Positions 26,249 to 60,849 of a DNA stretch of 64,000 nt are shown one piece after another (the stretch's first letter is position 1; each line of letters starts with the position of its first letter). This DNA comes from Raillietiella orientalis (Eukaryota). The stretch covers positions 2,046,001 through 2,110,000 of the forward strand of contig JAYWIR010000024.1 of NCBI GenBank assembly GCA_036172245.1. The letters are read 5' to 3'. The notes beneath the pieces were generated by a model that saw nothing but the letters and a program-made list of their open reading frames with translations, ran no database searches and had not been told where the DNA came from. The position numbers and the translations under genes are program-made.

Positions 26249-26636
26249 ATGCATTTATATTTATCTCTAGTCAGCTGACAAAGCTCAAGCACTGCACTGA
26301 GATCACAAGTGAGGGAAAAAGATGAAGCAGCAAAATTGTCTAATGTCATCAGCCAAACACTTTGTTGCTCAATGAAGTGTTACCTGTGTTCGCCTTCTGA
26401 TTTTACCATTCATTCATGATGATAGTTTACTGTAGCAATATAGTGCCTTGATTGATGAAAGAATTGAGATTTCAGTTTTCATTTAAAACTTAGATTTAAA
26501 CAACCATGCAGAAGGCTCAAGTATTCTTTTGCTCAGTGTTTAGTGTTTTTGTCTTGGGCAAGAAGGTTCATGAATGGAGCTCAGATTTAAGCAAACATTA
26601 TTTGCCACATTTTCAATTTAACTTGGTACCTGAGAA

Positions 26637-26642
26637 AATAAA
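26637..26642 (+). terminator. Candidate polyadenylation signal of nicalin
   Basis: AATAAA followed by GT-rich cgttttgttgtagt, near where CpG depletion ends. Confidence 0.45.
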
Positions 26643-27249
26643 ATCGTTTTGTTGTAGTATAGCACGCTGTTTCATTCGTTTTTCGGTCAGTGCTGAAAAT
26701 TCCAAAGAAACATTCGCTAGCCTCGTGATGCCATAAAACTCGGGGAAAGAGCGTGTGCCTTATCTGTAGCTGAGGTTATTTTGAGTATTATTGTGGGTTG
26801 TCACATTTTTCAAAAGAAATTAGTAAGTGGCATATAGAACCTGCATTCAGGTAAGCAGTAAAATGTCATAAGTGTACATATGTGCTACTTTGTTCCTAAA
26901 CCATAAAATCTTTGCCTGTCCGCAACTGTAAGATGTAAGAATAAAGTTGGTAGGTGCAGAGAATTGGTTCAATTCGAACTGTTTTCCTCGAATATACAAG
27001 GAAATTATTGGTGTCATTATTCTGCAAATAACATGAGGGAAAAAGGCTTCCCATGGATCACCGAATTGCAATTTTAAACAGTTTGGTAGAGAAACTGCAG
27101 TGAATTCATTTTCAAGGTTTTCCACGCTGAGTGATTCACTTCTCGAGAATCTGTTTTAAGTGTTTCATTGAAATCCTCTTAGTGGACACGATAATAATTA
27201 TGAGTCCTGATGCAATCTAGAACTTGTTTGGGGGATTTGCTGTTCCCCC

Positions 27250-27476
27250 TGGGACTCTTCAGCGAAGGTGTTTTGCACCCCAGTAGGTCGTCACCTCCAT
27301 TCTTTTGATCTGCCACATTTGCACCAGCCACTGTGGTTGCTTTCGAGCTACACTCAAGAGGTAGGATGTGCTTTCAGAGCACAGCATGGAAAAAAGTCCC
27401 TCAAGGAAGCATTCCTCACGCGAATTAGAACCGAGCTCAACCATACTTGGTTTAACTTTAAAAAAAAAAAAAAAAA
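27250..27476 (+). mobile_element. Possible non-LTR retrotransposon 3' tail
   Basis: ORF-like end (PLWLLSSYTQEVGCAFRAQHGKKSLKEAFLTRIRTELNHTWF) followed by an approximately 17-nt poly(A). Confidence 0.25.
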
Positions 27477-37569: not shown

Positions 37570-39200
37570 ACTCCACTTCGGCAGCCTGCGTTTCCACAGC
37601 CGAAGTGGTCGACATGGTTTTTTCGACTGACTTCAGGTCAGCCTTTCTATCGTTCTTTGACCTGGTTTTGCCAGGGTTTTCCGCTCCGCGCTTGTTTTGC
37701 TGCTCGTAGCAGCCGGACCGCGTGGAACCTTTTGTAGACACACTTCTTCGGTGTGATCTTCGTGATAATCGTACTCTATCAAAGATCCTGATGAAGTATG
37801 ATTTTCAGTGTGCACCTTCGTATCGCACTGGCGGCATGCGATGTTGGAGCATCTTTTTTTGGGGGTACCCCATGGCCTCGCCATTGCCGCAGCTCTTAGA
37901 CCTCCCCAAGTACCAGAGGTCGATGGGTTCTCCAACGACCACCAGTTTATGGGGAAGCTTAAGTCCTCGATGCAAACCGCGGCGGGTCCACTAAGGATCC
38001 CGTCAAATACGCGGAATCTGTTGGGCTTTGCCCACAGCGAGTGGACGATGCCAAATTTTTCGAGTACTTCCCGTACGGCGCACGGTGGCATCCGTACGGT
38101 AATGTCTTTTAGATATAAAACGATGGAGTCGTCCACCGGAACAGGAAAGTTCTTGCGTTTCTCGATCTTCACGGGGGTACGCAGCAGTCTTCGTGTTAGA
38201 CCCACCTCCTTGCAGGTCAGCTCTACGTGCTGACCGCTTCTGATCGTAAGCTTCGTCAGATCTTTCTTCCTCACGTTCAATCTGCATAGCTCCTCCTCGA
38301 AGGAACGCGCAGTGAGATCATCGAAAACCATGTCTACAGTGTAGAGTAGGCTAAGGTTGTATCCGTAGGCCTTGTAGGCCTCGGCCTAGGCCATGGCCGC
38401 TGCAGAGGGCGCGGTGACCACGGCGCTATATTCCCTCGCCGGAGCGGTGGATGAAGCTTCGAGAGCGGATGCTCCCACCTCCTTGGGTACGGAGGACGAT
38501 CATTCAACGTCTCTCTGACACTTTTTCGTGGTTGATTCAGGCATTTCTGCCTCCCTTCCACCACTGAAGCAACGCGACAACACCAAGTAAATCCAGGAGC
38601 GGGGAGCGCTAACAAAACACGTCCGAATCCGACCGCGGTACAACGCGAACTTGAGTGAGCCCCCTGAAGAACTCGTGGTCCCTTACTCGTCCTGGAATGT
38701 TCTCCTGGACAAGAAAGATCCGCTTCTCCGGGAGAAGGGACTGATTCCCTGAAACACTTGCGTGGGTGGACGAGAAAGAGGACGAGTGACGCGAGAATCC
38801 TACAACCTCAGGAAAAGACAGTCTCTTCCCTTTTTCGGAAGATTCGAGGAGGACAGAGAGCAAGCAGCACACGCTAATTAACAGAATGAGGACGCGGAAG
38901 CTTACTTGCAAACCGACCGCTGAGCAACTTTCCGTCGAAATTTCGACAGGACTCGCGCACGACAGAGCACGTGAGGGAACATCGAAAAGTCAGGGAATTC
39001 CCCCGGAATTTTCCGCCGGAGAAGAAATTCCAGGAGAGGATCCTTTCCGGGTTCTCTACGGAGGAGAAATGAGGAGTGACCCCCTTCCAGGTATCCCTCC
39101 GGAGAGAGTAAGGAAGATGGTTCCCTTCGGGCTTTCCTTCCAAGCGTAACGGGAAAGGACTCCCTCCGGAGCCTTCCTGGATTCATAGGGTAGTGGTACC
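37570..39200 (-). mobile_element. Tx1/L1-like 5' end: repetitive leader plus frameshifted ORF1 (RRM-like + CCHC knuckles, ZCCHC3-type)
   Basis: ORF 38331-37633: VREVLEKFGIVHSL..FRVFDGILSG..VCI and KKRCSNIACRQCDTKVH, typical of the Tx1 ORF1 layout. Confidence 0.7.
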
Positions 39201-40369: not shown

Positions 40370-41233
40370 AATTTATTTTTCCAATTTTACATTACATTTA
40401 TACTACAATCACATTCACACTACTGGCACTATACTACCACTTTGAAGTCCTTGGGGTGTCACACGTTCTGCACTCAGGGACCAAACATCTGCACACTTCC
40501 AGATGTTTGGTCCTGGACGTCGTCCTCAATCCTCTTAAGGATGAATCGGTACGTCCAGGCATAGATTCGTCCACAGTTCATGATGCCGATCTCCCTCTTG
40601 ATGAGTCCTTGCAGGATCTCCATCGGGGGTACGGCTCTCCTGGTTTTCCTCATCTTCCACCACCGCACAAGTATGGCGGTGATGAAGAGGGCGATGGTCG
40701 TTCTTACCATGGGATTGTAGCAGGGAACATTACCATTTCCCTGGAACATCCTTGCGATGATTTCCATCACAGACTTGTTGTTTTGTCCTATGATCCTTTT
40801 CAGGATCAGCCAGTTGTGTAGCAGTGTGGGACACGTCAAGACGTGAAGTCTCGTATCGATGTCTCCACATGCCATGCAGTCTTCATCTTCCCATCTTCCG
40901 GTGAAGTACTTGAGCCTGGACCCGCTCAGGATTCCTCCATGATAGAACATCAGGAGGTCGTCCTGGGTGCCCGGCGGAAGGTCACTCCTCCATAGCGTCG
41001 TGCCGATCGCTAACAGGTTGATCCTGTCACTCCCGTAGCGATCGGCGGCTTCTTGGAGGGCACTGGTGTCTTGGTCCTGGTCCTTGATAATCTTCCGGAG
41101 GTTCATCTTGGTTACCCTAGACCACGCGAAGTCGTTGTGGTTTATCGTCGCAAAGGTGACAGCCGCTTGGTGCCTCACACGCTCGATCGACGGGAAAGCA
41201 GCAACTACCCTTTGCATGACATCGTGTTGGGTT
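40370..41233 (-). mobile_element. Young 5'-truncated L1/Tx1-like insertion (ORF2 C-terminus plus 3' UTR)
   Basis: An uninterrupted frame of about 250 aa with LWRSDLPPGTQDDLLMFYHGGILSGSRL...EDEDCMACGDIDTRLHVLTCP (zf-RVT). Stop at 40474, short UTR, AATAAA at 40377-40372. No TSD recognised. Confidence 0.85.
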
Positions 41234-41734: not shown

Positions 41735-44700
41735 TTTTATGCATTGTGGAAAATTCAGCAACTGAAATTCAAACGGCACCAGGTGTTCACACCATAGCAC
41801 ATCTGTGCCGCCCCTTTGCATATTGATTCCCGGTTCGCGATGCGGTGTTCGGGAATTTCGCAAGATGGAGGAACGGTTCCCGGGAACGAGGATCCTGCCA
41901 GCGCCGAGGTGCCTTGAAGCGTTCTCTTTCGTGCAACCCATTCGTGCAGCACGGCAAGGTAACACCCTTAAGGAGGCAAGAAAACCTTCGCTCTCTAAGG
42001 AGGTGGAGCGTAGACTTGGTCGATCTGTTCCCGAAAAACCTCGTTTTCCCGACATCTTCAGAGTGCGCGTGCTCCTGGGAGGTGCGCACCCAGAAGCCCC
42101 TACTCAAGGTGTTGTGTGGTTCTCCCATGCACCATCCCCCTATCCCGTTTACATCGAGACCAGGGTTTCAGAGAACCTGCATGATCCCCTTCCCTGGTCA
42201 AGGACTGCCGCCACGCGGACCCGCCTGCTTGGTGTCTTTCGACGAACGCGAAAAGGCAGAGCTGCTGCCCACCGTGAAGGTTCACATGAGGGCGAAGTGC
42301 ATTCGTGACGAACGCCCCCGAGGGCAGTGCGAAGCGCAACTGGTTCCTCCTCGAAAAGGCAACGGGTTCGAAACTCCGCGGCGACGTTTCCACGACTGGA
42401 CTGGAGTGTCTGGAGACAGCTCTGCCGCTTCAGAAGGAGGCGAAGAGCTCGGAGCTTGGCCACGGCACTTGTGATGTGAAGTCGGCGGAGGAGACAAAGC
42501 CGAACCCATAGCGCTTACGACCGACTTGGAAGGCGAGAACATAGGTGGATCTACGCGTAACCGGACCCTTCTCAGGTTGCATGGCCGGATGACCGGAGCT
42601 GCGAGGGGGAGATCGACTGCTTCTTGGACTCCAGTTTGCACGAGGAAGCGTGTTTCAGCTTACGCTCGCTTTCTCTTGCAAGAAGGGAAGCATGGTAACG
42701 GAACCAAGGTGGTTTCATCTGTGCGTGGTTGAGTTTTCGAACCTCGTCGAGTGCCAGATAGGGGTGGTTGCCAGGGAAGCGTACTCGAACGAGCATATCT
42801 CGTTCCCATATTGCGACCCCTTTGGCGAAGCGAAACACCGTCGACGCACGTGGTTATCAGGACGACGGCCTCCGTGTCGAATGTTGCAGGAACCGGTGGC
42901 GGAAAGCTGTCACCATACTCGTCCTCGCAACCGGACATCTTCGGGATGGCGGACGAGACGCTGTTTCCATGACTGCTGGCGCCAGCGGGATGTGCACGCC
43001 GCACGGCTTCCGGGGACGTCGGAGCGTCCGCACGGCAGCGTCCTGCACGTTTTCCTGGCCGCCGTTTACGCCTGTGGGTCCGTGCAGACGCACTCGAAGA
43101 TGAGAACTTGCCCTTCGCCGCGCTTCTTCGGCGCCATGCCAGCAGGAATCCTAAACGATCGCGTTGGAGGTCTCCCAGTCTTCTAAAGCATGGGAAGCCT
43201 TCAGCCAATTCGAGAAAGAAAACGCGTGAGCGGAAGCCATCTGGATTTCCTGGAACATGGTTGATGGCACGTACCCTATCGACGATGTGGAAAACGTGCA
43301 CTTGTTGCAATCCGAAGAAGGAATCGCAGGCTTGGGACTCCCGTTCGATGAGTGGGAACACGGAGCAGGGGGTTCTCCTGTGAAAGGTTGACGCGTAGCC
43401 GTAAAGCGTGAGCGCGACGTCATGGGAAGGCTGGCTGACTACCTCATCAACAGCACGTCCGCATGTATCATCTCCCCTGCAGCCAATTCGGAGGAGCCTA
43501 CGGGTGCCACCTATTCCCAGAAAGACGGTGCGCTATTGACGACACTGCAAGGGAGCGCGTGTCGTCCTTCTCCTAGGGGACCGGAGGAAAAAAGTTTAAC
43601 AGATGTTTCCTTTGCCCATCGTGTCTGCTGGAAGGACACCTCTTCCTGGACTGAAGTCTGGATTTTTGGTTCTTTGTTGCTATGCGCTCCTTTTGATCCG
43701 CGCAGAGGGGAAACGGAGCGAAATTCCGGTTTTCGATTGGCTGCCTTGCGATCGCTGCCAGGCATCGCCGTCTTCCAACGCGCGTCTTCGAGCGTCCTGC
43801 AGCTGTCGAAAAGCCCACTCGATTCGGCTGCAGTGGCAATTTCCGTTTCCGAGGACGACTGCACAGGGCAATCGAGGGTGGATGCAAACAGACCCGATAG
43901 GAAAGCTTCCCAGCGTCGATGTTCTGAGAGCACATCGCGGTCGAGAGAGCACGTGCCATTGAGCCACCTCGTCGTGTCCGTGGTTGGGGAGAATGCGCGG
44001 ACGCCCAAGCCACGTAGCCCCAAAGGCAGCAGCTCTCCGAGGGCACACGACGTGCTTCCGCTCCGAGTGACTTCTCTCATCCGGGCCACGTCGTATTGTA
44101 AGCCCCAGGAGCCACTATTCCGGGCCGATTCCATTCATTCTCGTCATTCCCCGAGCAGCAAACGTCTGAATGCAATCATCTGCTCTGTTTCGTATCCAGT
44201 TGGCACCGACGAACTTTTCAATTTGCATAATGACATGCAAAACAGCTCCTGGCTTCTCCCTGAGCCAGGCTTCCCAGACACGGGACACTATCGGCGTCTC
44301 TTTTGCTAACGTGGGCGCGTGCGATGGTTTCGCGACAGCGCAGTTGGTGCCTGGACACACTGGCAGAGAACGAATAGCAAATGAATTGGGATCATAAGCG
44401 ACGGGGAGGGGGAGTAGGAGGGAGAGGTTATTGCGGGCTAGGGAGAGAGTCGTGAATGGTAGCGGGACGACCATGAGGGTGGTGGATAAAGGAAAAGTGG
44501 TTGGCGAGCGGTGGCTGAACGACGAGTCATCCACCGGAAAAATTTCCAGTGGATGACTCTAATTCCCCCGTGTAGCGCTGCCCAGACTTCTGCCTGCGTG
44601 GACACAGTCCACGGGAGACGTGTCGATCGTCTACGTGGGAGATGCGAAGAGTCGCTGAGACTCGCGTTCAACAGGCGCGTCAGAAAGCACACGACCAGTA

Positions 44701-45950
44701 ACGGGAAACAGGGCAGGGTGGTCAGCCGAATCGGAACCTCGAACTGTAGGAGCTCGCAGCTGCCAAACGGAACTTCACGAGGACAAACCCAAAGTCGAAA
44801 CCGGATTTTATTGCTCCAGGGAGACGAGAAAGAAGTCACGCTGGGCACTGCCCGGTTGCTACGAAGTCCCAGCAACGGTGTTAGAAGAGACGAGGTGGAA
44901 GACGAGCCAGTGTCGCAGACTTTGAGTGCCAACTGATGATCCCGTCCGTATCTGCGCCGTTAAGGCAATGTGGGGTAATTGGATCATCAGGAATGGAGAT
45001 CGAGAGAGGAATGAAGAGGTACTGAGAGAGTTCAAAATTGTTAAGTAACCGGTGGAGTGCATCGGAACGGAAATGGTGTTCTCGCACATACAGCATACCC
45101 GAGGTGGCTGCTGGAAGCATTGGATGGGTGAACCTTCGAACACTTTTCCGATAGGGTTGGCGAGAGCAGGGCGATGCAAATGTGTCGAGTGGTGATTTCA
45201 GGGTCGTTTTGTGGAGATAACGGAAACAGACTGGAATTTAAGTTTCCTTGTTCCGAGAGCTGGAAGAAATGGCCATGCAAGAAAGGGAAATGGTTGCTTG
45301 AGTTTCTTCTAGAAGTGGAGGGACTGCGAAAAATCGTCCTGAAAGTCATCACGGGATGATTAATGAGAGTGATGTGAACTGTTGCCTTCGGGAGAGGGAC
45401 AACGTCGAATGTAGAAAATGGTTACCGATCTTGGCCGGTATCGCACGATTCCTTCATCATTTTGTCTCTTAGCTTTTATTCTGCTCCACCGAGCCGCAGA
45501 TTACCCTTCCCAAGGCAACCGTCCACGAAGAATCCTTTTAAAATGTCGAAAAGTAGCCATCCTGATTCCAAATCCCACCAAAACACAAAATGGCGTCCTC
45601 CCGTTTCCACTGATGGAATACCCGCGATGAAAGATTGCGGCCCAATGATCTGAAGCTGCGGATGATGGAAACACTGTGGGGAGGAAGTCTTGGAGAAGGG
45701 CAAAGCGCAACAACTGCTGGAGACGTGGACTGGAAAGGCTTGGCGGTGGGGCGGAGGAAGAATGGAGAACCGCGGATGCAGGAAAGAGTTGAACGTACAG
45801 CAGAGACACCCGAGACAAACGCGTCCGGTAAAGGAGGAGGCAGTTTGTGTGTATTCAGTGCTTGCAGTGGGTTTCCTGTTGGCATCCCCCCCTCGTTCTG
45901 AATTGAAGGATAAGAGTGTCTAAGCTGCAGGAGAAGCTGCGCAAGGCTTC
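41735..45950 (-). mobile_element. Long, heavily decayed Tx1/L1-like element (ORF1 remnant about 45950-45400, APE endonuclease from about 45050, RT about 43400-42500)
   Basis: SFRSLGRNLS..ILCFGGIWN (ORF1-like), LPHIALTAQ (IxxLQET-like), AIPSSDCNK...FSNWLKA (LSLDxxKAFD...WLKxLY-like) and EAVDLPLAAPVIRPCN (KxRxLSLxGRxxxxN-like). Confidence 0.5.
41985..44846. repeat. Left arm of a 2862-bp near-identical inverted repeat
   Basis: Position x pairs with 97799-x. ORF translations on the two arms are essentially identical (e.g. 43422-44309+ vs 54377-53490-), with only a few substitutions seen. Confidence 0.97.
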
Positions 45951-45999: not shown

Positions 46000-46760
46000 C
46001 GTGGGGATTCGACCAGAAAGACTCCGTGCTATGTACAGGGACCGCAGCCACATGGCCACCAACGCGGACTCCCCAGAGAGATTCTCCTCCGTTGTCCTTC
46101 TTTGGACAATCCCATACATTGGCTCACCAGTAATATGGGGTATCACCTGAAGCGTCGAGGGAGAAACGTTGCACCTCTGTGGGTGGGTTACATGAGACCT
46201 CGTCAATCCTTCAGCTCCGTGTCCCACTCAAACTACTGTTCTGCTGGACCGAGATGCTGGACATCAATTTAAATCCGCAGCTTCCAGAGATAATAACGGA
46301 CAGCTCCACCTTACTCCTAATAGGGGGGGGGAGTCGTGCTCCTGCTGTTCCACTTGGGTCTTCCATGCAACTCCCATCCACATCATTGGACCCTGGAGAA
46401 GAATGGGAGCAGGGAGTTAGCCCAAGAGCCTCTCCTGCGCTTAATTGTGAATTCAGCTTCCCTCCGGCTTCTATGGGAACGTTTCGCAACGACTCCTGGG
46501 ACTCTACTGCGCAACCCGAGAGACGTTCATAAGCGCCTATTCATGCGCGATAGTCTACCGCCAACCGTGTTCCTAGCAGCTGTTTTCTGTCTCTGTGGAA
46601 TGGTGGTGTCCTGGAGCGCTGCCGAAAGAGGCCAAGACGACGAGGTTGTGTTCCTGAGTTCTTCCGAGGCTGCTCCTCGGATGGAAGGTTCCCCTACCTC
46701 CTTGAGGGTGTTTTCTTACCGTTTCGCAAGAATGGGCTTCGAAGGGCATCCTTTCCACGA
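46000..46760 (+). mobile_element. Tx1/L1-like ORF2 3' remnant directly upstream of protease-like gene A
   Basis: LLLFHLGLP...LIVNSASLRLLWERFATT..NPRDVHKRLFMRDSL aligns with the 36590-37140 and 35600-36100 copies. Confidence 0.7.
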
Positions 46761-46962
46761 TCCTCTTACAACGCACCTTGGCGCTGGCAGGATCCTCGTT
46801 ACCGGGAAACGTTCCTCCGTCTTGAGAAATTCCCGAGCACCGCAACACGATCTGGGAATCAATATGCAAGGGCACGGCTCAGGTGTGCTGAGGTGGGAAC
46901 AAGCAACGCCTGCTGCCGTTTGAAATTTCATTTGCCGAAATTTTCACAAGTGCCCTTGGGGA

Positions 46963-46969
46963 CATAAAA
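46963..46969 (+). promoter_or_regulatory. TATA-like box (CATAAAA) of protease-like gene A
   Basis: About 40 nt upstream of ATG 47006. Conserved at 56709-56715 before gene B and at 41741-41735 on the minus strand. Confidence 0.5.
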
Positions 46970-47005
46970 GCAACCCTTGGCGGATCCAGAGGTCAGGCGA
47001 GAGGG

Positions 47006-49677
47006 ATGGCAGCTTCGAAGGCACTCGCGGTTTTATTCTTGGCTCTGACGATGTGAGTTTTTGCAACAACCATTGTAGTGAATTCCTTCCATTTGAATTT
47101 CTTCCACTGGAACCATCATTTTTCTCTCCCTCTCTCTTTCTTCCAGATCAGTTTTTTCTGAAGGAAAGACTGTAAAAATAAACCAGATGTATTTCAATGT
47201 AAGACTCATCCTTCTTGTAAATGCAGAGAGATAACAGGAGATTCTTTCTTTTTCAAGGGAACATACGTTGTGCACATGATGACCAACAGGATACAATATA
47301 GCATGCTTTTGGATAGCTGGTCTGACGTTGTGTGGCTTCCATCATCGGGATGCTCCTCGGATTTTTGCAGTAATGGGGACTCGACCAAGAGGGAAAGCAC
47401 ATTGCGATTTCCATTGCTTCATAGTGCATCGCTATCGATACGATGTTTCAAAGCTGGCAAGGAACCCGGATGCTAATCCCAAAAAGGAGTATTATCTGCT
47501 AGATGTTAAGCTGAATGGAAATCAACGCATCTTCAACTTTGTGAGTTTGTGACTGCAAAGTTGAAATTTCGTGAGAGTGGACCAACAAGAGGCCTCTCTC
47601 GTGGGTCATCTGCGTACATGTTGCATTTAAATCGGATCCGTTTCAGAAATTCGGACAATGGATTTCCACATGGAATATTGCGGTTTTCGATATAGATCCC
47701 CAGCCAAGCAGTTATATCAATTTTCTGTTGACGGACGGTTTCTTCGGCATAAATCCGCCAGCTCTGAGTTCCTTTCTGAGGAATCATAACCTGGAGCAAA
47801 TCGCTTACATGGAATTCGATCGGTAAAGCAAGTCTTCGAAAGCTTTGCAAACACGTCAAGCATCTGGATCCAGGAAAGAACGAAAGACGAGTGTTGTTTT
47901 GGGAGAATCGTACCCATTTCGAAATCCGAAACGCTGTGCCAACTACCCCATAAACAAAAAAAATCAGCTCTATGAGATTCCCATTCGCAGGTAAGTGCAA
48001 TCCTTCTTGCAGTCTGAAATCGGAATTGTCTGTTGGCTCCTCGTTTCCTCAGTGCAAGTTGATGACAGTAGCTCGAAGGGTAGCGTGTAGAATGTCCTTC
48101 TAACGGGTTGCAGAATTCGAAGATTCTGCCAACTAAGGAATTTCGGAGTCATTGCTTAAAGATGCGGCTCAATCTTTAAGAACGTGCGAGCAATTGGGGT
48201 CCCAGAAAGACGACCGCAACTGACTGCCGCAATTGGGGATGGAATTGGGATCCTCGTTCGCAGCTCCTCGCGTCCCTCTAGTTTTCTTCGTTTTTTCCTC
48301 CTCTGAGAAGGAGCCGTTCGGTTGCCACCTTGAAGGCATCGGAACGTCTCGTCTGCTCCGCCGCAGGAAAGCTCTCAAGACTTTTCTGCTGTCACGCAGT
48401 CGACCGAAATCCGGGTAAAGCGGCGACTTTGACCACTTTCGCAAGGTCAGGGAGGGAAAACTCGGGCTCACTTGCGATTCCCTACTGCTAGTCAATGGGG
48501 CATCCGACCACGGATATGAGGGTGCCCTGCCAACGCATCCCCCATTCTTGATCCATTCTTAGCGTCATCAAGCAAAAATGCTCTAAACCTTCCTCTACGT
48601 CGGTCGCTTTTATGGGCGTTCGAAAATGCAACGCGGGTGAGGTGAGAGGATGCCGTGGCAACACAGCCACCAACGATGGCAGTCCGAGAGCTATGACCAC
48701 CACGAATACTCCTTTTCAGCATCAAGATCGGCAAACAAGAAATGTGTCAGGGGATATGCGTTGCTTATTTGGATACAGCCCTTCCAATCGCTCAAGTTAG
48801 TCAGAATTTTATGAAACAATTCCGGAGACACATTAAACCGCTGGATGTGGACCACTTGTACGGGGTGAGTCTCCAGATCTGTTCCCATCCCTAGCAGCGT
48901 CCAGCTATTGAACAGCCTGCGAGCCCCTGGAATTCATGGCCCAGTGTAACCTACACATTTTTGAATGGTGCGGAGCTTGAGATGAAACCACAGGACTATG
49001 TCTTCGATATCGTGGTGAGTAGCGAAAACCGACAAACTTCCACTCGAATGAATAAGCAGTTATCCAACTAATCGTAGTGGCAGCTATGCAGCTAATTGTA
49101 ATATTAACTCTTCCTCCGATTGCAGTAATTAACTATGAGACTAAGCCATCCGCAGTGCCGACTGAGTTGCGATCTTTGAAACCAATGCATCGTATAAAGA
49201 GTTAGAATCCACCAAAGGGCAAGTTGAACGGGCAAAAGTTGCTTTCTGTCGATTGCTTCGTGATGTGCGCGACGAACGAAGAGGAGCTGTTGCTTCCTTC
49301 ATACGTGCTTGCACGTCCCGTTATCCCCGAAGAGTCACTTTTCTCAAGGTATAATTGCCATTTGTGCCAACACGCTTTTGCTGCGTGAGAACCGAAAACT
49401 CGAGTCGCACGTGGTTTACACGCCTGCCTTTTCCTCCCTCGTGTTTCCCGGAAATCGGAAGAGTGGCCATAATCCTAAACCATCGTGATGGGAGATTGGT
49501 ATTCGACTAACGCCCGAATTTTATTTTCAGCTGAGCCGCGGCACTGTTCCTGTGCTGGGATTCGCGACCGGATTGAGGTCGGCCGATGAAATGTGGACGA
49601 TTTCCCAGAAGATGATGACATACTTGATCACGCAGATCGATTTGAAAAGCGAAACCCTCACGATTCATGTGAAGTGA
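47006..49677 (+). CDS. Secreted pepsin-like (A1 aspartic peptidase fold) protein A, probably non-catalytic. Exons: 47006-47052, 47147-47198, 47258-47369, 47425-47540, 47647-47822, 47874-47990, 48720-48864, 48916-49014, 49531-49677. 336 aa
   Basis: All-GT-AG splicing gives an open frame. Signal peptide MAASKALAVLFLALTISVFS; YSMLLDSWSDVVWLPSSGCSSDFC (vs FDTGSSNLWVPSxxC); RYDVSK; DGFFGI; VVLGE; IKIGKQEMCQGICVAYLDTALP (vs CxxGCxAIxDTGTS); LEMKPQDYV; WTISQKMMTYLITQIDL. Exon phases match copy B. Confidence 0.88.
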
Positions 49678-50718
49678 TGCAGACATGCTCGGATTGTGGG
49701 TGGTCACTGATTTGCATCCCAATTAAAAAAGACGATTCCTGCTGTTTGTCTTTTCAATTGGCATTCAGTGGCATCTCGAAGCTTCCAGCAGCCTTCCGAT
49801 AGAGTATTCCTCCAAATGAAGACCACATTGCGCAAAACACATGTGTGAGCAGGGAGGCAATTTGTGAGAATAGGGTAGGGGTTCATTCGACGCAGATCAA
49901 TCCACCCCCGAACATATTCTAATGCAACATGAGCTTGCTGCTGTCGCTTGGTAACAACTCCAGCAAACACCAGTAACAGGCACTTGGGAGTAAGATTCCC
50001 TGTCCTTGTGGTAATTTTGTTTCAAGAGAATGAAGAGAAAGGGTTCTCTCTTCTCTCACTGGAAACGAGGCGTCTCCGGGAAACCATGACAACGACTCCA
50101 GAGTCTGGATTATCAGGGACGGTAGAATCAAACTACAAAAAAATCCTGGAAATCGCACAACATCAATGCAAGTGGAAGAAGGGTTTGCCAAAGGGCATCC
50201 AGGGCTCTCGCCAAACACAGATCCCAAATCCATCAGATTGCGTGCTCAACTGGAACGATCCGGAAGCATTTCTGGCCTGTAGAGCTCACTGACACTCCGC
50301 CGCTGCTTTCAATCGCAAGCGTCCGTGCGTGGTCACCCGAACATTCGGGATCGTCTGGCGCCTTCGTAACGATGATGTGTGTGCAACTAATAGGTTGTGG
50401 TTTGGGGAATCTTTAAGCAGCCTGGAACAACAACCACTTCGCAATTCTACTGCGAAAATCTTTGAAAACAGCGGCGTGTTATTAGGAACTGACTAAGTGG
50501 AACGCTGAGGTCAGGATATGTTCTCCTTCACGACAACACGTGCCTACACACTGCAGTCTGGACATTCCAGACAATTAAGGAATTCAAATGGGAACTTCTT
50601 GATAATCTTGCATTCCTGACCTTGAGTCCAGTGACTATCACGTTTTCCCACACCTCCCAGGCATTCTATAGAAATTGGAGTTCATCATCCGGGAGAGAGC
50701 TGCTTGCTCTGCCACTCC

Positions 50719-52185
50719 TAGGTCAGCCTATTTCTCCTCACTCAGAAGCAGTAGGTCAGCAGGATGAGGACCGACTCGGTGACCAGGGGAGCCACTCCTA
50801 CCGCTGCCAGGACCGCGAGTCCCATGCACGCGCCTTCCATGGACGCGAAAGACTGACCTCTACGCTGTTTGCTCCGCCGTCGCAGTTGCGAGACTTTTCC
50901 TCTGAATCCCTCCTTTCTCCTCTTCTGGCAGCAGCAGGGCGGATCCTCCCTTCGGAGGGTTCTGCCCATCCGTGATGCGGATCGAATTCACGACCAGGAA
51001 TTCGCTGGATTTCTTTTCTTCCGGAGGGTTCCTCCTTCTCCTGCCTAGAGAGATTTCTGTGCCTTCAGGATGGCTTGGCACTTGACACATCGCTGGCTTG
51101 CACTTGGGAAAGCATAAGGTCACTAGAGCGCGCAACTGGACCACATCCGTAGCGGGAAACTTGAAGACCGTCATGTGCATCTAGAGATCCCTTCAGCTTC
51201 CAGAGGACCACTTGAGTGGTCTTACGATCGAATCCACGGGGCATCCTTGCTCGTCGATGAGGTGGATCTCTCTCGAGTCCAGGTCGCCCACCGCTGTCAT
51301 GTCCCTGATGGAGATCTCGTACGGAGTACCCTCGTCCTTGATCTCGAACCGCACCAGCAGAGGGTCACCCACTTCGGCTGCAGATACCTCGTTGTTCTTC
51401 AGGTCGTAGATCTTCATGAGCACGTTCGGCGAGTGCAGCGCCGACTTCTCCTCGGACAGGGTGGCAGCGACCCCTCTCACCTTCAGACCCATGCCGTTGG
51501 TGACGGTCGTGTTGAAGAGCTGGTAGTGGCACTTCACGATGAGCTGCAGGTCTTCGTCGGTCAGGACGACGTCGTGGTGCTGAATGACGATCTCGTTGCT
51601 GAACAGCCTTCCAGCTCCTGCTTCACGTTGCAGTCCGGGCTGCCGTACGGCATGTGCAGCTCGAACTCCAGGCTTTGGTCCACGTCCACGGCGCATCCTT
51701 CCGGGTTGGGGAGTGCATAGTTCTTCCCGTTGAACAGTTTGCTGCTCAGCACCTTCACGAGCATCTTCGTGTCATGGCAGTGGACGCTCACGTTGTAGCA
51801 AGGCCCTAGCTCGTACGTTGAGGATTCCGGTATATCCAGGTAGGGCTGCTTCAGATGCAGCAACGTGGCCTCCGAGTGGTGGCTGATCCTGCAGGTGTTC
51901 AGGTCCATGTCGTTGTAGTCGAATGAGTGGCATCTGTAAGGTGCCGTCATGCAGAGTCGGTGGCACAGGTCCAAGCTGTCCACGTTAGTGAACACAGAGT
52001 CCACAGTCTTTATGATCTTCCCGATTATATTCTGGAAGCGGCACTTCTTCACAGGCTCCCTGACGCAGTTGTTCTCCAGGTATTCGATGTCTTCTCCTTT
52101 TTCGAGTCCGACGAAAGACTTGTGCGTGTGACGATCCTTATCCGAGATGCTGCACGACTGATCCTTGCTGTTGAAGTTCGCCGAT
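50719..52185 (-). pseudogene. NompA-like PAN/apple + zona pellucida (ZP) domain gene, large terminal exon, disabled
   Basis: Acceptor tttcttccag just above 52185. PAN motifs (EYLENNC; CHRLCMTAPYRCHSFDY), ZP motifs (FSNEIVIQHH, EVGDPLLVRFEI, LIDEQGCPVD, FKFPATDVVQLRALVT), furin site GRRRR and a TM helix. One-nt frameshift at about 51606, in-frame TGA (about 51193) and TAG (about 51181), and a further shift before the TM. Confidence 0.85.
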
Positions 52186-52259
52186 CTGGAAGAAATCCAT
52201 CCGCAATAAGAATCCAGTCATCATAAATAAGGATAGGTGCACTCAACGAGCAATAGGAA

Positions 52260-52500: not shown

Positions 52501-52952
52501 GGATCACAGGAAGCCTCCGTGCAACTGATGCTGTTTGCATCCTATGCGTCTTTCCCAAAAGGAACGAACCGAACTAATTCGGACAAAGAGGGAATCGAGA
52601 AGAGCACACACCAGCACGAAGGAAAAGCTCCTGAACGTGCGCTCTTGCTCAATCCGAGGACAAATGGTTCTCTGATCCGAAGTGAGAGAGAAAAGCAGAT
52701 ACGTGAAAGCAGATATGTAACTCGGTTTTCCAGACAAAGCACATCTTCTCCAGTGTGCTCCATTTCAGCAGGATGAGTATTCCGAAATACAACTAGCGAT
52801 TCTTTCTCTGAGGAGGAGGGCTTGGCTAGGCCAGCTAGAGAGATTTTCTTTTCTTATTTTCTTCATTCTTCTGAAAGAAAGAGTCTCTCGAACATGTTAT
52901 CGAGTTGCCCCAGGCAGCAGTCTGGAGTACTCATTACTTGATCCCGATGCAG

Positions 52953-55814
52953 GCCCAGCGTGACTTCTTTCTCGTCTCCCTGGAGCAATAAAATCCGGTT
53001 TCGACTTTGGGTTTGTCCTCGTGAAGTTCCGTTTGGCAGCTGCGAGCTCCTACAGTTCGAGGTTCCGATTCGGCTGACCACCCTGCCCTGTTTCCCGTTA
53101 CTGGTCGTGTGCTTTCTGACGCGCCTGTTGAACGCGAGTCTCAGCGACTCTTCGCATCTCCCACGTAGACGATCGACACGTCTCCCGTGGACTGTGTCCA
53201 CGCAGGCAGAAGTCTGGGCAGCGCTACACGGGGGAATTAGAGTCATCCACTGGAAATTTTTCCGGTGGATGACTCGTCGTTCAGCCACCGCTCGCCAACC
53301 ACTTTTCCTTTATCCACCACCCTCATGGTCGTCCCGCTACCATTCACGACTCTCTCCCTAGCCCGCAATAACCTCTCCCTCCTACTCCCCCTCCCCGTCG
53401 CTTATGATCCCAATTCATTTGCTATTCGTTCTCTGCCAGTGTGTCCAGGCACCAACTGCGCTGTCGCGAAACCATCGCACGCGCCCACGTTAGCAAAAGA
53501 GACGCCGATAGTGTCCCGTGTCTGGGAAGCCTGGCTCAGGGAGAAGCCAGGAGCTGTTTTGCATGTCATTATGCAAATTGAAAAGTTCGTCGGTGCCAAC
53601 TGGATACGAAACAGAGCAGATGATTGCATTCAGACGTTTGCTGCTCGGGGAATGACGAGAATGAATGGAATCGGCCCGGAATAGTGGCTCCTGGGGCTTA
53701 CAATACGACGTGGCCCGGATGAGAGAAGTCACTCGGAGGGGAAGCACGTCGTGTGCCCTCGGAGAGCTGCTGCCTTTGGGGCTACGTGGCTTGGGCGTCC
53801 GCGCATTCTCCCCAACCACGGACACGACGAGGTGGCTCAATGGCACGTGCTCTCTCGACCGCGATGTGCTCTCAGAACATCGACGCTGGGAAGCTTTCCT
53901 ATCGGGTCTGTTTGCATCCACCCTCGATTGCCCTGTGCAGTCGTCCTCGGAAACGGAAATTGCCACTGCAGCCGAATCGAGTGGGCTTTTCGACAGCTGC
54001 AGGACGCTCGAAGACGCGCGTTGGAAGACGGCGATGCCTGGCAGCGATCGCAAGGCAGCCAATCGAAAACCGGAATTTCGCTCCGTTTCCCCTCTGCGCG
54101 GATCAAAAGGAGCGCATAGCAACAAAGAACCAAAAATCCAGACTTCAGTCCAGGAAGAGGTGTCCTTCCAGCAGACACGATGGGCAAAGGAAACATCTGT
54201 TAAACTTTTTTCCTCCGGTCCCCTAGGAGAAGGACGACACGCGCTCCCTTGCAGTGTCGTCAATAGCGCACCGTCTTTCTGGGAATAGGTGGCACCCGTA
54301 GGCTCCTCCGAATTGGCTGCAGGGGAGATGATACATGCGGACGTGCTGTCGATGAGGTAGTCAGCCAGCCTTCCCATGACGTCGCGCTCACGCTTTACGG
54401 CTACGCGTCAACCTTTCACAGGAGAACCCCCTGCTCCGTGTTCCCACTCATCGAACGGGAGTCCCAAGCCTGCGATTCCTTCTTCGGATTGCAACAAGTG
54501 CACGTTTTCCACATCGTCGATAGGGTACGTGCCATCAACCATGTTCCAGGAAATCCAGATGGCTTCCGCTCACGCGTTTTCTTTCTCGAATTGGCTGAAG
54601 GCTTCCCATGCTTTAGAAGACTGGGAGACCTCCAACGCGATCGTTTAGGATTCCTGCTGGCATGGCGCCGAAGAAGCGCGGCGAAGGGCAAGTTCTCATC
54701 TTCGAGTGCGTCTGCACGGACCCACAGGCGTAAACGGCGGCCAGGAAAACGTGCAGGACGCTGCCGTGCGGACGCTCCGACGTCCCCGGAAGCCGTGCGG
54801 CGTGCACATCCCGCTGGCGCCAGCAGTCATGGAAACAGCGTCTCGTCCGCCATCCCGAAGATGTCCGGTTGCGAGGACGAGTATGGTGACAGCTTTCCGC
54901 CACCGGTTCCTGCAACATTCGACACGGAGGCCGTCGTCCTGATAACCACGTGCGTCGACGGTGTTTCGCTTCGCCAAAGGGGTCGCAATATGGGAACGAG
55001 ATATGCTCGTTCGAGTACGCTTCCCTGGCAACCACCCCTATCTGGCACTCGACGAGGTTCGAAAACTCAACCACGCACAGATGAAACCACCTTGGTTCCG
55101 TTACCATGCTTCCCTTCTTGCAAGAGAAAGCGAGCGTAAGCTGAAACACGCTTCCTCGTGCAAACTGGAGTCCAAGAAGCAGTCGATCTCCCCCTCGCAG
55201 CTCCGGTCATCCGGCCATGCAACCTGAGAAGGGTCCGGTTACGCGTAGATCCACCTATGTTCTCGCCTTCCAAGTCGGTCGTAAGCGCTATGGGTTCGGC
55301 TTTGTCTCCTCCGCCGACTTCACATCACAAGTGCCGTGGCCAAGCTCCGAGCTCTTCGCCTCCTTCTGAAGCGGCAGAGCTGTCTCCAGACACTCCAGTC
55401 CAGTCGTGGAAACGTCGCCGCGGAGTTTCGAACCCGTTGCCTTTTCGAGGAGGAACCAGTTGCGCTTCGCACTGCCCTCGGGGGCGTTCGTCACGAATGC
55501 ACTTCGCCCTCATGTGAACCTTCACGGTGGGCAGCAGCTCTGCCTTTTCGCGTTCGTCGAAAGACACCAAGCAGGCGGGTCCGCGTGGCGGCAGTCCTTG
55601 ACCAGGGAAGGGGATCATGCAGGTTCTCTGAAACCCTGGTCTCGATGTAAACGGGATAGGGGGATGGTGCATGGGAGAACCACACAACACCTTGAGTAGG
55701 GACTTCTGGGTGCGCACCTCCCAGGAGCACGCGCACTCTGAAGATCTCGGGAAAACGAGGTTTTTCGGGAACAGATCGACCAAGTCTACGCTCCACCTCC
55801 TTAGAGAGCGAAGG
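52953..55814. repeat. Right arm of the 2862-bp inverted repeat (decayed Tx1-like ORF2 on + strand, continuing to about 56460)
   Basis: Reverse complement of 41985-44846. In addition, 56466-56695 matches 41740-41975 at slightly lower identity. Confidence 0.97.
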
Positions 55815-56756
55815 CTTTCTTTCCCGGAAGTCCAGGATGCCTGCATTTGTGGGAACCTCGAAATGCTTCTGCTTCTGCCGGTGCAGCGAGGGGAGAGAAG
55901 GATTGTCCGTCCCATCCCTGAGAGGATTACGTTCTCTATGCCCATCAGCTGATTGCTGCTGATCTCTTCGAGGAGCGCCTCGTGCAGAGTGCGCGCGCGC
56001 AAACTCCCAGTGCTCGCGCTTCTCATGCGCTGAAGGTTCGAGCGGTCGCAGACCAGAAATTTCCTGATGCTGCTTCAGGATGCACGTCGTGCCCGAACGC
56101 AAATGGAGCAGTCCAAGCCTTCCAGGAAGATCCGCTTTGCAGAGTGAGTGGCGTGCTCTGACCTCCGCATCCAATCCTACCCAGACTGAGAAGGGAAAGC
56201 GCGGAGATGGTTCATTCCTTCTTCTTCGTACGGGTAACGTTGCCCTCCCTCCAATAGAAACGTGCGGGATGGAGAAGGGCACGCGGAAACAGCATCTCTC
56301 TGGAAAATCATGGGGAAAAAGAAAACCACTTCAAAGTTTCCCGAAAGATTGGACGGAGTAGTACGCCTTCCGAATGAGACTGCGCTCCCGACGGCGGCCG
56401 TCCACCCGGGAATGTATTCCTGAGCTCTTGCGAGGTTGCTCCTCGGATGGAAGGTTCCCATGCCTCCCTAAGGTTGTTTCCTTGCCGTGCTGCAGGAATG
56501 GGCTGCACGAAAGAGAACGCTTCAAGGCACCTCGGCGCTGGCAGGATCCTCGTTCCCGGGAACCGTTCCTTCATCTTGCGAAATTCCCGAACACCGCATC
56601 GCGAACCGGGAATCAATATGCAAAGGGGCGACACAGATGTGCTGAGGTGTAAACACCTGGTGCCGTTTGAATTTCATTTGCCGAAGTTTTCACAAGTGCC
56701 CTTGGGGACATAAAAGCAACCCAACCCTTGGAGTATCCAGAGGTCAGGCAAGCGGG

Positions 56757-59460
56757 ATGGCGGCTTCGAAGGCACTCGCTGTTTCAGTTTTGGCTCTAAT
56801 GATGTGAGTTTTTCAGTAACCACTCTGAAGCATTCCTTTCATTTAAATTTTATTCGTTTGAACCATCATTTCCCCTCACTTTCTTTCAGATCACTTTTTC
56901 CTGAAGAAGAAGCTCTCATCATAGCACAGCAGATTTCCTTCAATGTGGGACTCATCTTTCTCAGGATTGCAGAGAGATAACAGGAGATTCTTTTTTTCAA
57001 GGGAGCATATGTTGCGGAAATAACGGTCAAGAAAGAATTCTACAGTGTGCTCTTGGATAGCTGGACTGACACCATGTGGCTTCCATCATCGGAATGCTCC
57101 TCGGATTATTGCAGTAATGGGGACTCGACCGAGAGGGAGAACATGGGACGACTTCGCTTTCTTTGCAGAACGCCGCCGCACATACGATATTTCACAGTTG
57201 CCAAATAGCTCTGCAACAGGTCAACAGAAGTCTTATCGTTTGTTGTATGTTAACATGGATGGATATCAGCACAGGTTCAAATTTGTGAGTTTGTGGCTGC
57301 CAAGTTGAAATTTCGGGAGAGAGGAGGGAAATGAGTCCTCTCTTGAGGACCATCTGCGTTTATGTTGCATTCAAATCGGATCCATTCCAGATATTCGGAC
57401 GCCAAGTTTTCACGAAAACTATAGCGACCTTCAATATAGATCCGCAACCAAGCAATTTCATCACTTTACTGAATAACGACGGGTTCTTCGGCATCAATCC
57501 GTCAGCCTTGGATTCGCTTCTGAGGAGCCATAGGATAGAGCCAATCGCCTACATGGAGTTCGACAGGTAATGCAAACCTTAGAAAGCATTGCAAAGACGT
57601 CAAACATCTCGATCCAGAAATAAGAAAAAGGGGACTGTTGTTTTGGGAGAATCGTATCCGTCTCCAAAACCAAGTCTCCAGGCCACCTACCAGATAGACA
57701 AAAGAGAAACTCTCTATAAGATTCAACTGCTCAGGTAAGTGCCCTCTTTGCAGTTTGAATTCGGAATTGTCTGGTGGCTGCTCGTTTCCTAATTGCAAGT
57801 TGATGACGGTAGCTCGAATGGTAACATGCGTAGAAAGACCTTTCAACGGGTTGCAGAATTCAAAGATTCTGCCAACTGAGGAATTTCGGAGTCATTGCTT
57901 AAAGATGCGGCTCAATCTCTAAGAGCGTGCAAACATGTGGGATTTCAGAAAGACGACCGCAGCTGACTGCGGCAGCTGGGAGAGATCTTTCGCTGCTCTC
58001 CGCGTCCTTTTAGTTTTTTCCGTTTTTTCGTCCTTCGAGAAGGAACCTTTCCGATGCCGCTTTGTAGCATCTAAACGGCTCGCCAACTCCTCCACAGGAA
58101 GGCTCACAAGACTTTTCTACTATCACGCGTCCGACCGAAGTACGAGTGAAGCGGGGATCGGGGATCCGAAGCGATCACTGTCGCAACGGCTGGGAGGGAA
58201 AACCCTGGAACCTCCCCACGATTGCTGGGAGGGACCATGAAGGGTTCACACGCGATTCTCGATTGCTGGCAACTGACTGCGGACATGAGGGTGCCCTACC
58301 GACGCATTTGCCAATCCTGATCCATCCTTAGCATTACCTTGCGAAAGGACTCGAATCCTCCTTCAAGTCGGCCGCTTTTCTAGATGTTCGAAAAGGCGAC
58401 TCTGGGTGCGAAGAGAGGATGCCGTGGCAACACACTGCCTCCAGCGCTAATGGTCCGAGAGCAATGACTACGAAGGTTTCTTCTTTTCAGCATCAAGGTC
58501 GGCAAAGAAGAAATGTGTCAGGGGATATGCGTTGCTTACTTGGATACAGCCCTTCCAATCGCTCAAGTTAGTAACAAGTTTATGGAGCAATTCAAGAAGC
58601 AAATTAAACCTCTGGGTGTGGATTACTTGTACGGGGTGAGTCTCCAGATCTGTTCCAAAGTCCTATCAGCGTCGAGCTATTGAACAGCCTACGAAGAAGT
58701 TGGATTCATTCCCCAGGGTAACCTACACATTTGTCAATGGTGTAGTGCTCGAGATGAAACCACAGGATTATGTCTTCAATATCCTGGTGAGTAGCGAAAA
58801 TCCACAAAATTCAACTCAAATAAATAAGCAAATATTCAACTAATTGTAGTAGAAACTATTCAACTAATTGTAGTACCAGCCTTTCAACCAATAGTAGTAG
58901 CTAACTATTACACTGATCAATCGAAAGGGCTGACCGATTTGCGGTCGTTCAAGTCACTGCATCGTTTAAAGAGTTAGGATGGACCAAATGGCAAGCCAAG
59001 TGACAAAAACTGCTCTTCTTCGTGATGTTGGCGACGACCAAAGAGGAGAAACTTCACTCTTGCTTCACACCGAAGTGCTTGCATGTTCCGTTATCTACGA
59101 AGGGTCACTTTCCTTTTTCCCCAGAGTAGAAATTCCCGTCTGAACGGTCCGTGACACTATTTTGTAGTGTTCGAACCGAAAACTCGCGTCGCACGTGGTT
59201 TACACGCCTGTCTTTTCCTCGCTCGTGTCACCCACAAATCGGAAGAGTGGACGAAATCCTTAACCATCGTGGTGAGAGATTACGATCCGACTAACATCGG
59301 ACTTTCCTTCCAGGTGAGTAAGAAAGACGTCCCTGTGCTGGGGTTTGCCAGCAGATTGAGGTCCGACGACGAAATGTGGACGATTTCCCAGAAGATGATG
59401 ACATACTTGATCACGCAGATCGATTTGAAAAGCGAAACCCTCACGATTCATGTGAAGTGA
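56757..59460 (+). CDS. Secreted pepsin-like (A1 aspartic peptidase fold) protein B, probably non-catalytic. Exons: 56757-56803, 56890-56944, 57002-57113, 57169-57284, 57391-57566, 57618-57734, 58491-58635, 58688-58786, 59314-59460. 337 aa
   Basis: Open spliced frame: MAASKALAVSVLALMISLF; AYVAEITVKKEFYSVLLDSWTDTMWLPSSECSSDYC; TYDISQ; NDGFFGINP; GTVVLGE; IKVGKEEMCQGICVAYLDTALP; FPRVTYTFVNGVVLEMKPQDYV; WTISQKMMTYLITQIDLKSETLTIHVK. A branch-like gactaac precedes the last acceptor. The intron 2 donor (GTGGGA) is weak but aligns with GTAAGA in copy A. Confidence 0.88.
58830..58880 (+). repeat. Short tandem duplication (about 24-nt unit) in intron 8 of gene B
   Basis: tattcaactaattgtagta occurs twice; a degenerate version is in copy A at about 49060-49100. 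Confidence 0.7.
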
Positions 59461-60849
59461 TGCAGACATGCTCGGATTGTGGGTGGTCACTGATTCGCAT
59501 CCCAATTAAAAAAGACGATTCCTGCTGTTTGTCTTTTCAATTGGCATTCAGTGGCATCTCGAAGCTTCCAGCAGCCTTCCGATAGAGTATTCCTCCAAAT
59601 GAAGACCACATTGCGCAAAACACATGTGTGAGCAGGGAGCCAATTTGTGAGAATAGGGTAGGGGGTTATTCGACGCAGATCAATCCACCCCCGAACATAT
59701 TCTAATGCCACATGAGCTTGCTGTTGTCGCTTGGTAACAACTCCAGCAAACACCAGTAACAGGCACTTGGGAGTAAGATTCCCTGTCCTTGTGGTAATTT
59801 TGTTTCAAGAGAATGAAGAGAAAGGGTTCTCTCTTCTCTCACTGGAAACGAGGCGTCTCCGGGAAACCATGACAACGACTCCAGAGTCTGGATTATCAGG
59901 GACGGTAGAATCAAACTACAAAAAAATCCTGGAAATCGCACAACATCAATGTAAGTGGAAGAAGGGTTTGAGTCCAGCTCTTCCCATACACGAATGCCGA
60001 ATCCGATAGCTTGCTTGCCCAACGGGAACGGGCAGGAACAGTTCTGGTTCCGCCGGTGCTTTCAATCGCGATTGTCCGTTCGTGAACACGCCGAACTTTC
60101 GGGGGTCGCCATGCGCGTTCGCAGCGACCTTTCCCGGTTCTTTCTTTTCCGTTTCACGGTGGTGCGAAAAACAAACTGCTTCCCGTTTGCCATGGGGTCC
60201 TCATAGATCATCCCGGCATACGTCAGCCGACCGAAACCACAGCGCGCGGCCTCTCCGTGCAGCAACGGGACTGACGAAAGCAAGCAAGAAGCGAGCAAGA
60301 AGACGTCCTCCCTTTCGGCTTCCTGTACCATGTCATTGTCAGACGCATCCTGCTCTCTAACTAGGGATAATCATACAAGGAATGATAGTTCGTCTTTCGG
60401 AATCATCAACCACAATTCCTCATCACACCTGTTCGTGATTACTCTTCCTCTCAGCACTCTGGAATAATGACCGCAACGAAACATTCGTTGCTGACTGCTG
60501 CAGCAGCTAAGGGGCTCTTCAAGTTGTCTCAAGTGATTATTCTGCGATAGCGCGCACGATATCACAAGATGCCGAAACGGAGCTGGAATTGCACCTGTTG
60601 TCTTCCACCCTTCTAAATGTCCAAGAGTTGGACACGCACTCTCGCGACGCATTCTGATGCTGGAAATGTCGGCCACCTTGATCTCGATGCAAGCGGACGG
60701 TGAGACGCACTTCACCATGAAACCACTGCGTTGGAAACTCCTAAAGTGGCCGTTCGAACAGTAGGGCCGACAGGGGAACTGCGGGTCGATTCTCTTCAGC
60801 TTCTCTGGTAGCCGAAGATCCCTATCTTTCCAGCATAGCTGCAGAGCTT

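Follow-up and report, generated by a model that had tools for sequence, protein, structure and literature searches.

Tandem pepsin-family paralogues of Raillietiella orientalis with N-lobe exons more diverged than their introns: a possible case of diversifying selection on the flap

The DNA analyzed here is a window of 64,000 nucleotides (nt) from Raillietiella orientalis (GenBank assembly GCA_036172245.1, contig JAYWIR010000024.1, positions 2,046,001 to 2,110,000 of the forward strand), and all coordinates below are counted from its first nucleotide. It contains two genes, A and B, that are tandem paralogues of a pepsin-family (A1) gene. Exons 2 to 6 of these genes, which correspond to the N lobe of the protein, are more diverged between the copies than the introns that flank them, and exon 4, which corresponds to the flap over the pepsin cleft, has more replaced codons than expected at either of two neutral rates. 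Diversifying selection on a binding surface is a plausible but unproven cause of this replacement divergence, and we put its chance just short of even. The case for selection rests on the excess over neutral references and not on a ratio of nonsynonymous to synonymous divergence (dN/dS) above 1.

A and B are pepsin-family genes with altered catalytic motifs

A and B lie in a diverged direct duplication (46647 to 50372 versus 56413 to 60127) with 78% identity. Six-frame reading combined with splice logic places gene A at 47006 to 49677 and gene B at 56757 to 59460, both on the forward strand and each with nine exons, which encode 336 and 337 residues, respectively (for exon coordinates, see Table 1). 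All 16 introns of the two genes are bounded by GT..AG. Introns at six of the eight positions are 51 to 106 nt long, and those at the other two are long (729 and 756 nt and 516 and 527 nt in A and B, respectively). The only coding indel between the genes is one in-frame codon in exon 2, where B is longer. A tblastn search with both proteins as queries found no third copy of the gene in the window.

The A1 profile with which these proteins were compared was derived from metagenome contigs scanned with a degenerate pepsin active-site pattern, which yielded 120 loci and, from these, 32 full-length open reading frames (ORFs). All 32 are Pfam PF00026 (Asp) proteins (E <= 1.1e-58). Against this profile, spliced A scores 27.0 bits and spliced B scores 39.1 bits, whereas 2000 shuffles reach 5.8 bits at most, and the match of A is collinear over profile positions 22 to 324 of 333. 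When exon 3 alone was compared with PDB by phmmer, A1 proteases accounted for seven of the eight matches; these align on the DTGS site, and every one has an E value of ~1. These matches, together with the nine-exon plan described below, bear out the original prediction, made from the sequence alone, that A and B are protease paralogues.

Other searches with single exons returned no relatives. None of seven exons matches PF00026 at E values up to 10, a result that applies to single exons and not to the spliced protein. In PDB, exons 5 and 9 have no phmmer matches and exon 7 has one, which is unrelated (E = 1.5). Exon 7, against longer proteins, gave 1 candidate, which did not score, and exon 9 gave 27, none of which scored at E values up to 10. 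A profile of exon 5 searched against 1.84 billion representatives gave six matches with E <= 0.001, all of them repeat proteins with 5 to 13 short stretches each; we rejected these as A1 relatives, as none scores above 0 bits against the A1 profile (best, -1.6 bits). The single-exon queries without relatives suggest, weakly, that the family either is confined to one lineage or evolves too fast to be detected.

Independent backing for A1 homology comes from the nine-exon plan and its near-equal exon lengths. The exons of A are 47/52/112/116/176/117/145/99/147 nt long (exon 2 of B is 55 nt), and those of mammalian pregnancy-associated glycoprotein (PAG) genes are 53-59/151-166/118/119/194-200/117-123/136-148/99/147-156 nt long in Table 3 of PMC5561160, which also gives 117 nt, the length in A and B, for exon 6 of bPAG1/2 and pPAG2. 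Nine exons are the rule for aspartic peptidase genes, according to PMC2682831. The ~100 nt lacking from exon 2 are the counterpart of an absent prosegment, for which there is no room: the hydrophobic signal is separated from the first strand that aligns to the profile by only ~13 residues.

Both proteins keep the two catalytic aspartates, but within the motifs DSW (exon 3) and DTA (exon 7). In contrast, all 32 reference proteases have D(T/S)G at both sites, the first of which was imposed by the search pattern. Two cysteine pairs, CxxxxC after DSW and CxxxC before DTA, are kept in A and B; the third pair, which is usual in pepsins, is absent from both. The identification of exon 4 with the flap was likewise correct, since the profile columns of the flap motif YGSG fall within this exon. 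The Tyr-Gly-Ser/Thr-Gly motif itself is not kept: A has neither Tyr nor Gly at the motif columns, and the Tyr of B is one column off. Because the glycine is replaced in both catalytic motifs and the flap is altered, the products are probably non-catalytic, and the DSW and DTA motifs together with the lack of a prosegment suggest that they are binding proteins, which may hold a ligand in the old substrate cleft or its surroundings. Each protein has a hydrophobic, signal-like N-terminus and a calculated isoelectric point of ~8.8-8.9, and both are predicted to be secreted.

Exons 2 to 6 are more diverged than the flanking introns

The p-distance between A and B is 0.25-0.40 in exons 2 to 6 and 0.14-0.27 in introns 1 to 6 (for individual values, see Table 1). 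In 9 of 10 comparisons of these exons with a flanking intron, all introns included, the exon is more diverged, which is the relation that the original prediction had claimed. Based on raw differences, exons 3 to 6 differ at 161 of 521 sites and introns 2 to 6 at 193 of 973 (Fisher p = 2e-6). We considered CpG decay as the source of the exon excess and rejected it, since the excess remains at non-CpG sites (148/500 in exons versus 153/752 in introns, p = 0.0002).

Exon 4 is the extreme, with 46 of its 116 nucleotides differing. The 14 of 39 residues that had been counted by hand as identical, with no indel, are confirmed by our splice models, which recover the same two 39-residue peptides, and the span to which attention had been drawn, 47258 to 47990, runs exactly from exon 3 to exon 6 of A. 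Heavy substitution had also been noted at the start of exon 3 and in exon 6, and it is found at both: two 60-nt windows that begin at 47243 and 47273 (~47243-47332) are 62-67% identical, and exon 6 keeps fewer than half of its residues (Table 1).

The intron with which these exons had been contrasted is a less simple case. The part of intron 6 cited as nearly unchanged does have only 9 mismatches in 96 columns, with no gap (48095-48190 versus 57838-57933), but this island is unrepresentative: it is the best-conserved part of an intron in which 143 of 704 aligned bases differ and there are 77 gap columns, and none of 5000 permutations equaled it. The island could be regulatory, or it could have arisen by conversion over a short tract. 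A structured RNA was rejected as an explanation for it (no Rfam family; fold z of -1.28 to +0.53). No open frame was noted in the island.

Codon replacement in exon 4 exceeds neutral references before correction

All tests of selection were pairwise, on the two sequences A and B. In neutral simulations that respect codon structure, we used as references the intron rate and the rate at 4-fold degenerate sites (0.26). In exon 4, 25 of the 39 codons are replaced, versus 15.2 expected at the intron rate (P = 0.001) and 17.9 expected at the 4-fold rate (P = 0.017). For exons 2 to 6 together, 94 of 191 codons are replaced, versus 75.2 at the intron rate (P = 0.003). When only codon positions 1 and 2 are counted, 109 of 382 sites differ in exons 2 to 6, versus 188 of 895 in trimmed introns (p = 0.005), and 31 of 78 differ in exon 4 (p = 0.0003). 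The bootstrap dN of exon 4 is above 0.32 in 98% of replicates.

Standard estimators give a dS of 0.40-0.61 in exons 2 to 6, versus an intron distance of ~0.25. We judged the NG86 dS to be inflated as a neutral reference; in exon 4 only 4 of the 12.5 synonymous differences that it infers fall in codons with an unchanged residue, and the high dS largely results from pathway averaging within multiply hit replaced codons. Synonymous differences in codons with unchanged residues fit the intron rate in eight of nine exons (in exon 4, 4/14 versus 2.7-3.3 expected). At third positions of 4-fold degenerate codons, the copies differ at 9 of 35 sites where the residue is unchanged and at 5 of 19 where it is replaced, both close to the intron p-distance of 0.21. 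The NG86 dS is as high as dN, a pattern that the original prediction had named as speaking against selection, but the clean synonymous sites agree with the introns. Because of this agreement, the similarity of the introns can be accounted for without gene conversion, with the exception of a 600-bp tract at the 3' end (see below).

In the explanation that we favor, A and B are tandem duplicates of a pepsin-fold gene with a product predicted to be secreted, a gene that kept its nine-exon plan, lost its prosegment, and had the glycine of both catalytic D-T/S-G motifs replaced, giving DSW in the N lobe and DTA in the C lobe. Their products would be non-catalytic ligand binders that use the old cleft or the surface around it. 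The copies are ~0.21-0.26 differences per neutral site apart, with the C lobe (exons 7 to 9) under purifying selection and its 3' end lately homogenised by gene conversion. The N lobe (exons 2 to 6) replaces residues at about the neutral rate overall and the exon 4 flap above it, for which the most likely cause would be selection for A and B to differ in binding by the flap and N lobe.

Relaxed constraint and mosaic history as alternatives

A number of results weigh against selection for such a difference. For exons 2 to 6, dN/dS is below 1 by every method (NG86, 0.59; LWL85, 0.86; YN00, 0.83; maximum likelihood, 0.75), and the NG86 bootstrap interval is 0.37-0.85. For exon 4 the values are 0.57 (NG86) and 0.90 (LWL85), the maximum likelihood estimate being unstable. 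The whole-gene ratio is 0.56-0.71, that of exon 5 is 0.27-0.42, and exons 6 and 8 reach 1.1-1.9 (exon 6, 1.3-1.6), which is not significant; by these pairwise estimators, neither the gene nor any region or exon has a dN/dS significantly above 1. The 94 replaced codons of exons 2 to 6 are close to the 90.0 expected at the 4-fold rate (P = 0.30). Exon 4 was chosen afterwards from nine exons, and correction for this raises its P value to ~0.009-0.15. Identical and replaced residues are barely clustered by total run count (p = 0.56), and there are three runs of at least seven identical residues (p = 0.025). In addition, the tract of low identity at exon 4 begins ~30 nt inside intron 3, off the exon register, and in exon 5 synonymous differences occur in 13 of 37 same-residue codons versus 6.5 expected (p = 0.009). 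The suggestion of diversifying selection made in the original prediction is supported in part, by the uncorrected replacement count of exon 4 and the near absence of indels, and not by a pairwise dN/dS above 1.

The ratios for exons 2 to 6, the pooled count at the 4-fold rate, the weak clustering of conserved residues, and the fading of the exon 4 P value all favor relaxed constraint, in which catalysis has been lost, most residues of the N lobe are free to change within the limits of the fold, and exon 4 just happens to be the most diverged of the nine exons. We regard this explanation as doubtful, with a real but minor chance of being right. Against it speak exon 4, which lies above both neutral references and has a high dN in nearly all bootstrap replicates, and the strictness with which the frame and splice sites are preserved and indels avoided. 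There are also conserved blocks in the same exons, and a neutral average over such exons would imply that the remaining sites are above neutral.

In a second alternative, the introns understate the age of the duplication, and the history of the genes is a mosaic: either introns and conserved parts of exons were homogenised by repeated conversion, while selection eliminated converted copies of exons 4 and 5, or more distant paralogues elsewhere in the genome donated short pieces of exon, a mechanism (ASSET) proposed for snake toxin genes. Local conversion did occur. A tract that covers the final 30 codons of exon 9 plus ~510 nt downstream has only 7 differences in 600 columns, in a duplication with 55-80% identity elsewhere; identity is 71% in the 300 columns to its left and 55% in the 150 columns to its right, which indicates recent gene conversion; within exon 9, the first 18 codons differ at 19 of 54 nt and the last 30 codons at 1 of 90. 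Divergence is also below average from exon 7 through intron 7 to exon 8. The raised synonymous divergence of exon 5, with its low dN/dS, fits a divergence older than that of the flanking introns, and the start of the diverged tract inside intron 3 is in keeping with exchange, as are the about equally diverged codon positions of exon 4 (0.46, 0.33, and 0.385). There is precedent in ASSET, in which exon segments are switched and introns stay more than 85% alike, according to PMC2711939.

Nevertheless, a mosaic history is quite unlikely. The 4-fold sites of replaced codons are no more diverged than those of unchanged codons, so there is no signal of an older donor, and the synonymous differences in unchanged codons of exon 4 fit the intron rate. 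Synonymous divergence does not vary significantly among exons (p = 0.095), the pattern at 9 of 10 junctions would require many conversion tracts confined to introns, and the window has no further copy. Diversifying selection on the binding surface is the reading that we continue to favor, although two sequences cannot separate it from relaxed constraint and mosaic exchange.

Both genes are maintained

Both genes are kept intact by selection. At the observed divergence, an open frame survives in only 0.005-0.05% of neutral simulations, and the frames of A and B are open over their full 336 and 337 codons. The introns have 20 indel events in 1736 columns, which predicts 11.6 events in the coding sequence; the single in-frame event seen there (Poisson P = 1e-4) agrees with the original description of the divergence as nearly free of indels. 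In the C lobe, 29 of 129 codons are replaced, versus 50-61 expected under neutrality. In all, A and B differ by 126 replaced residues. Decay of one or both copies into pseudogenes, with exon divergence by drift, could be suspected from the degenerate catalytic motifs and from single-exon queries that found no homologue in protein databases, but the open frames, the indel deficit, and C-lobe conservation exclude it, every splice site is intact, and we consider it extremely improbable.

Comparison with known systems

The PAGs of artiodactyls, a duplicated A1 family with some members regarded as inactive, are reported by Xie (1997) and Hughes (2000) to have undergone fast, adaptive divergence. 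They share with A and B the pepsin-family fold, secreted products (as predicted for A and B), the nine-exon plan, and recent tandem duplication, with nearly the same exon lengths (PMC5561160). Substitutions at conserved positions of the catalytic center may preclude enzyme activity in PAGs, as stated in PMC2682831. Unlike PAGs, A and B have no prosegment (exon 2 is 52-55 rather than 151-166 nt), have the motifs DSW and DTA, and have introns that are mostly 51-106 nt long. A and B come from a host outside the mammals, and single-exon queries returned no sequence relative.

In snake venom families, exons of duplicated genes for secreted proteins diverge beyond their introns, while the signal peptide, introns, and untranslated regions (UTRs) stay alike (PMC2711939); the families with such accelerated evolution, including ASSET, are phospholipase A2, three-finger toxins, and serine proteases. 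Similarly, the signal exon, the promoter-proximal region, most introns, and the 3' region of A and B are more alike than exons 2 to 6. In contrast with the venom genes, A and B have another fold, belong to another animal group, and have no sign of a toxin role and no dN/dS above 1.

Two non-catalytic pepsin folds are also relevant. The cockroach allergen Bla g 2 is an arthropod pepsin-fold protein described as an inactive aspartic protease, which by description resembles what is proposed for A and B, and its motif changes differ from DSW and DTA. Plant TAXI-type xylanase inhibitors use a non-catalytic pepsin fold as a binder or inhibitor in host-microbe conflict. Pfam TAXi_N occurs only as a secondary match, on 21 of the 32 reference proteases, and the nine-exon animal gene plan of A and B argues against their membership in the TAXI branch.

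A bolder interpretation is that A and B belong to an arthropod-like, lineage-restricted family of secreted pepsin-fold binders in which the Trp of DSW plugs the catalytic center and the flap and N lobe form the recognition surface of an arms race. We think this unlikely as a whole. If such a family exists, its role could be immune recognition or the inhibition of a pathogen, host, or prey molecule; it may be invisible to standard homology searches, being so fast-evolving, and it may be the invertebrate counterpart of PAGs or of the plant inhibitors. Our literature search for a described arthropod family of such proteins found nothing that clearly matches, which is no proof of absence in print.

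On present evidence, A and B are a plausible but ordinary fast-evolving duplicated secreted gene, and adaptive evolution is not demonstrated. Non-catalytic pepsin-fold binders are known from few, scattered lineages, to which A and B, if confirmed, would add an invertebrate case, one in which the exon plan, the loss of the prosegment, and the altered motifs are legible in the DNA and the fastest change is on the flap over the old cleft. As a compact system, the pair could then be used to study how the cleft of a protease comes to serve as a variable surface for recognition.

Gene coordinates and other features of the window

Table 1. Exons of A and B and associated tracts, with p-distances between the copies entered in the rows for A
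Feature	Position	Strand	p-distance, exon	p-distance, following intron	Remarks
Promoter-proximal region and 5' UTR	46891..47005	+			92-98% identical to B (sliding windows)
A exon 1	47006..47052	+	0.149	0.221	Start codon and predicted signal peptide; hydrophobic N-terminus; 13/16 residues in common with B
A exon 2	47147..47198	+	0.308	0.140	52 nt, no space for prosegment; 7/17 residues in common with B
A exon 3	47258..47369	+	0.250	0.273	N-lobe active-site motif DSW instead of DTG, then Cys pair
A exon 4	47425..47540	+	0.397	0.179	Flap region; most diverged exon
A exon 5	47647..47822	+	0.284	0.157	DGFFGIN block, counterpart of DGILGLG; 37/59 residues identical to B
A exon 6	47874..47990	+	0.316	0.203	117 nt; acceptor ..ATCCAG conserved in A and B; 18/39 residues identical
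A exon 7	48720..48864	+	0.117	0.098	C-lobe motif DTA instead of D(T/S)G, Cys pair ahead; 38/48 residues identical
A exon 8	48916..49014	+	0.202	0.242	99 nt, same as mammalian A1 genes; 21/33 residues identical
A exon 9 and stop codon	49531..49677	+	0.136		41/48 residues identical
Recent gene-conversion tract	A 49588..50187, B 59371-59970	+			7 differences in 600 columns
B exon 1	56757..56803	+			
B exon 2	56890..56944	+			One codon longer than A exon 2
B exon 3 (DSW motif)	57002..57113	+			Splice model, profile alignment
B exon 4 (flap region)	57169..57284	+			Splice model, profile alignment
B exon 5	57391..57566	+			
B exon 6	57618..57734	+			Conserved ..ATCCAG acceptor
B exon 7 (DTA motif)	58491..58635	+			Splice model, profile alignment
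B exon 8	58688..58786	+			Splice model, profile alignment
B exon 9 and stop codon	59314..59460	+			Splice model, profile alignment

An inverted orphan copy of the promoter-proximal region is present at 41744-41989. Of the two upstream regions, it is closer to that of B (56450-56695; 93% identity) than to that of A (76%), and it ends ~60 nt before the expected start codon, with no gene body after it. An inverted repeat of 2.9 kb with 99.76% identity has one arm upstream of A (41975-44851) and the other between A and B (52949-55824). Its long ORFs have no Pfam match; its candidate origins are inverted duplication at a very recent date, a mobile element, and an artefact of assembly.

Also between A and B, on the opposite strand, is an ORF with a PAN domain (51564-52217; Pfam E = 5e-13); the adjoining ORF at 51196-51771, on the same reverse strand, has no Pfam match. 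Three other long ORFs, at 40477-41232 (reverse strand), 37636-38385 (reverse strand), and 50493-50972 (forward strand), have no Pfam match at E values up to 0.01, and by eye we take them to resemble remnants of retrotransposons and mariner-type transposases.

Farther upstream, at 17595-18383 (forward strand), a diaphanous-type formin is represented by one long exon, which encodes a run of prolines and an FH2 domain (Pfam E = 5.7e-27). Diaphanous proteins of insects and Daphnia match it best, with an identity of only ~50%, so the host is probably an arthropod-like animal of a sparsely sampled group; a protein atlas search with this exon gave no narrower placement. The composition of the window changes sharply, from a GC content of 29-41% in 12001-28000 to 47-58% in 28001-64000.

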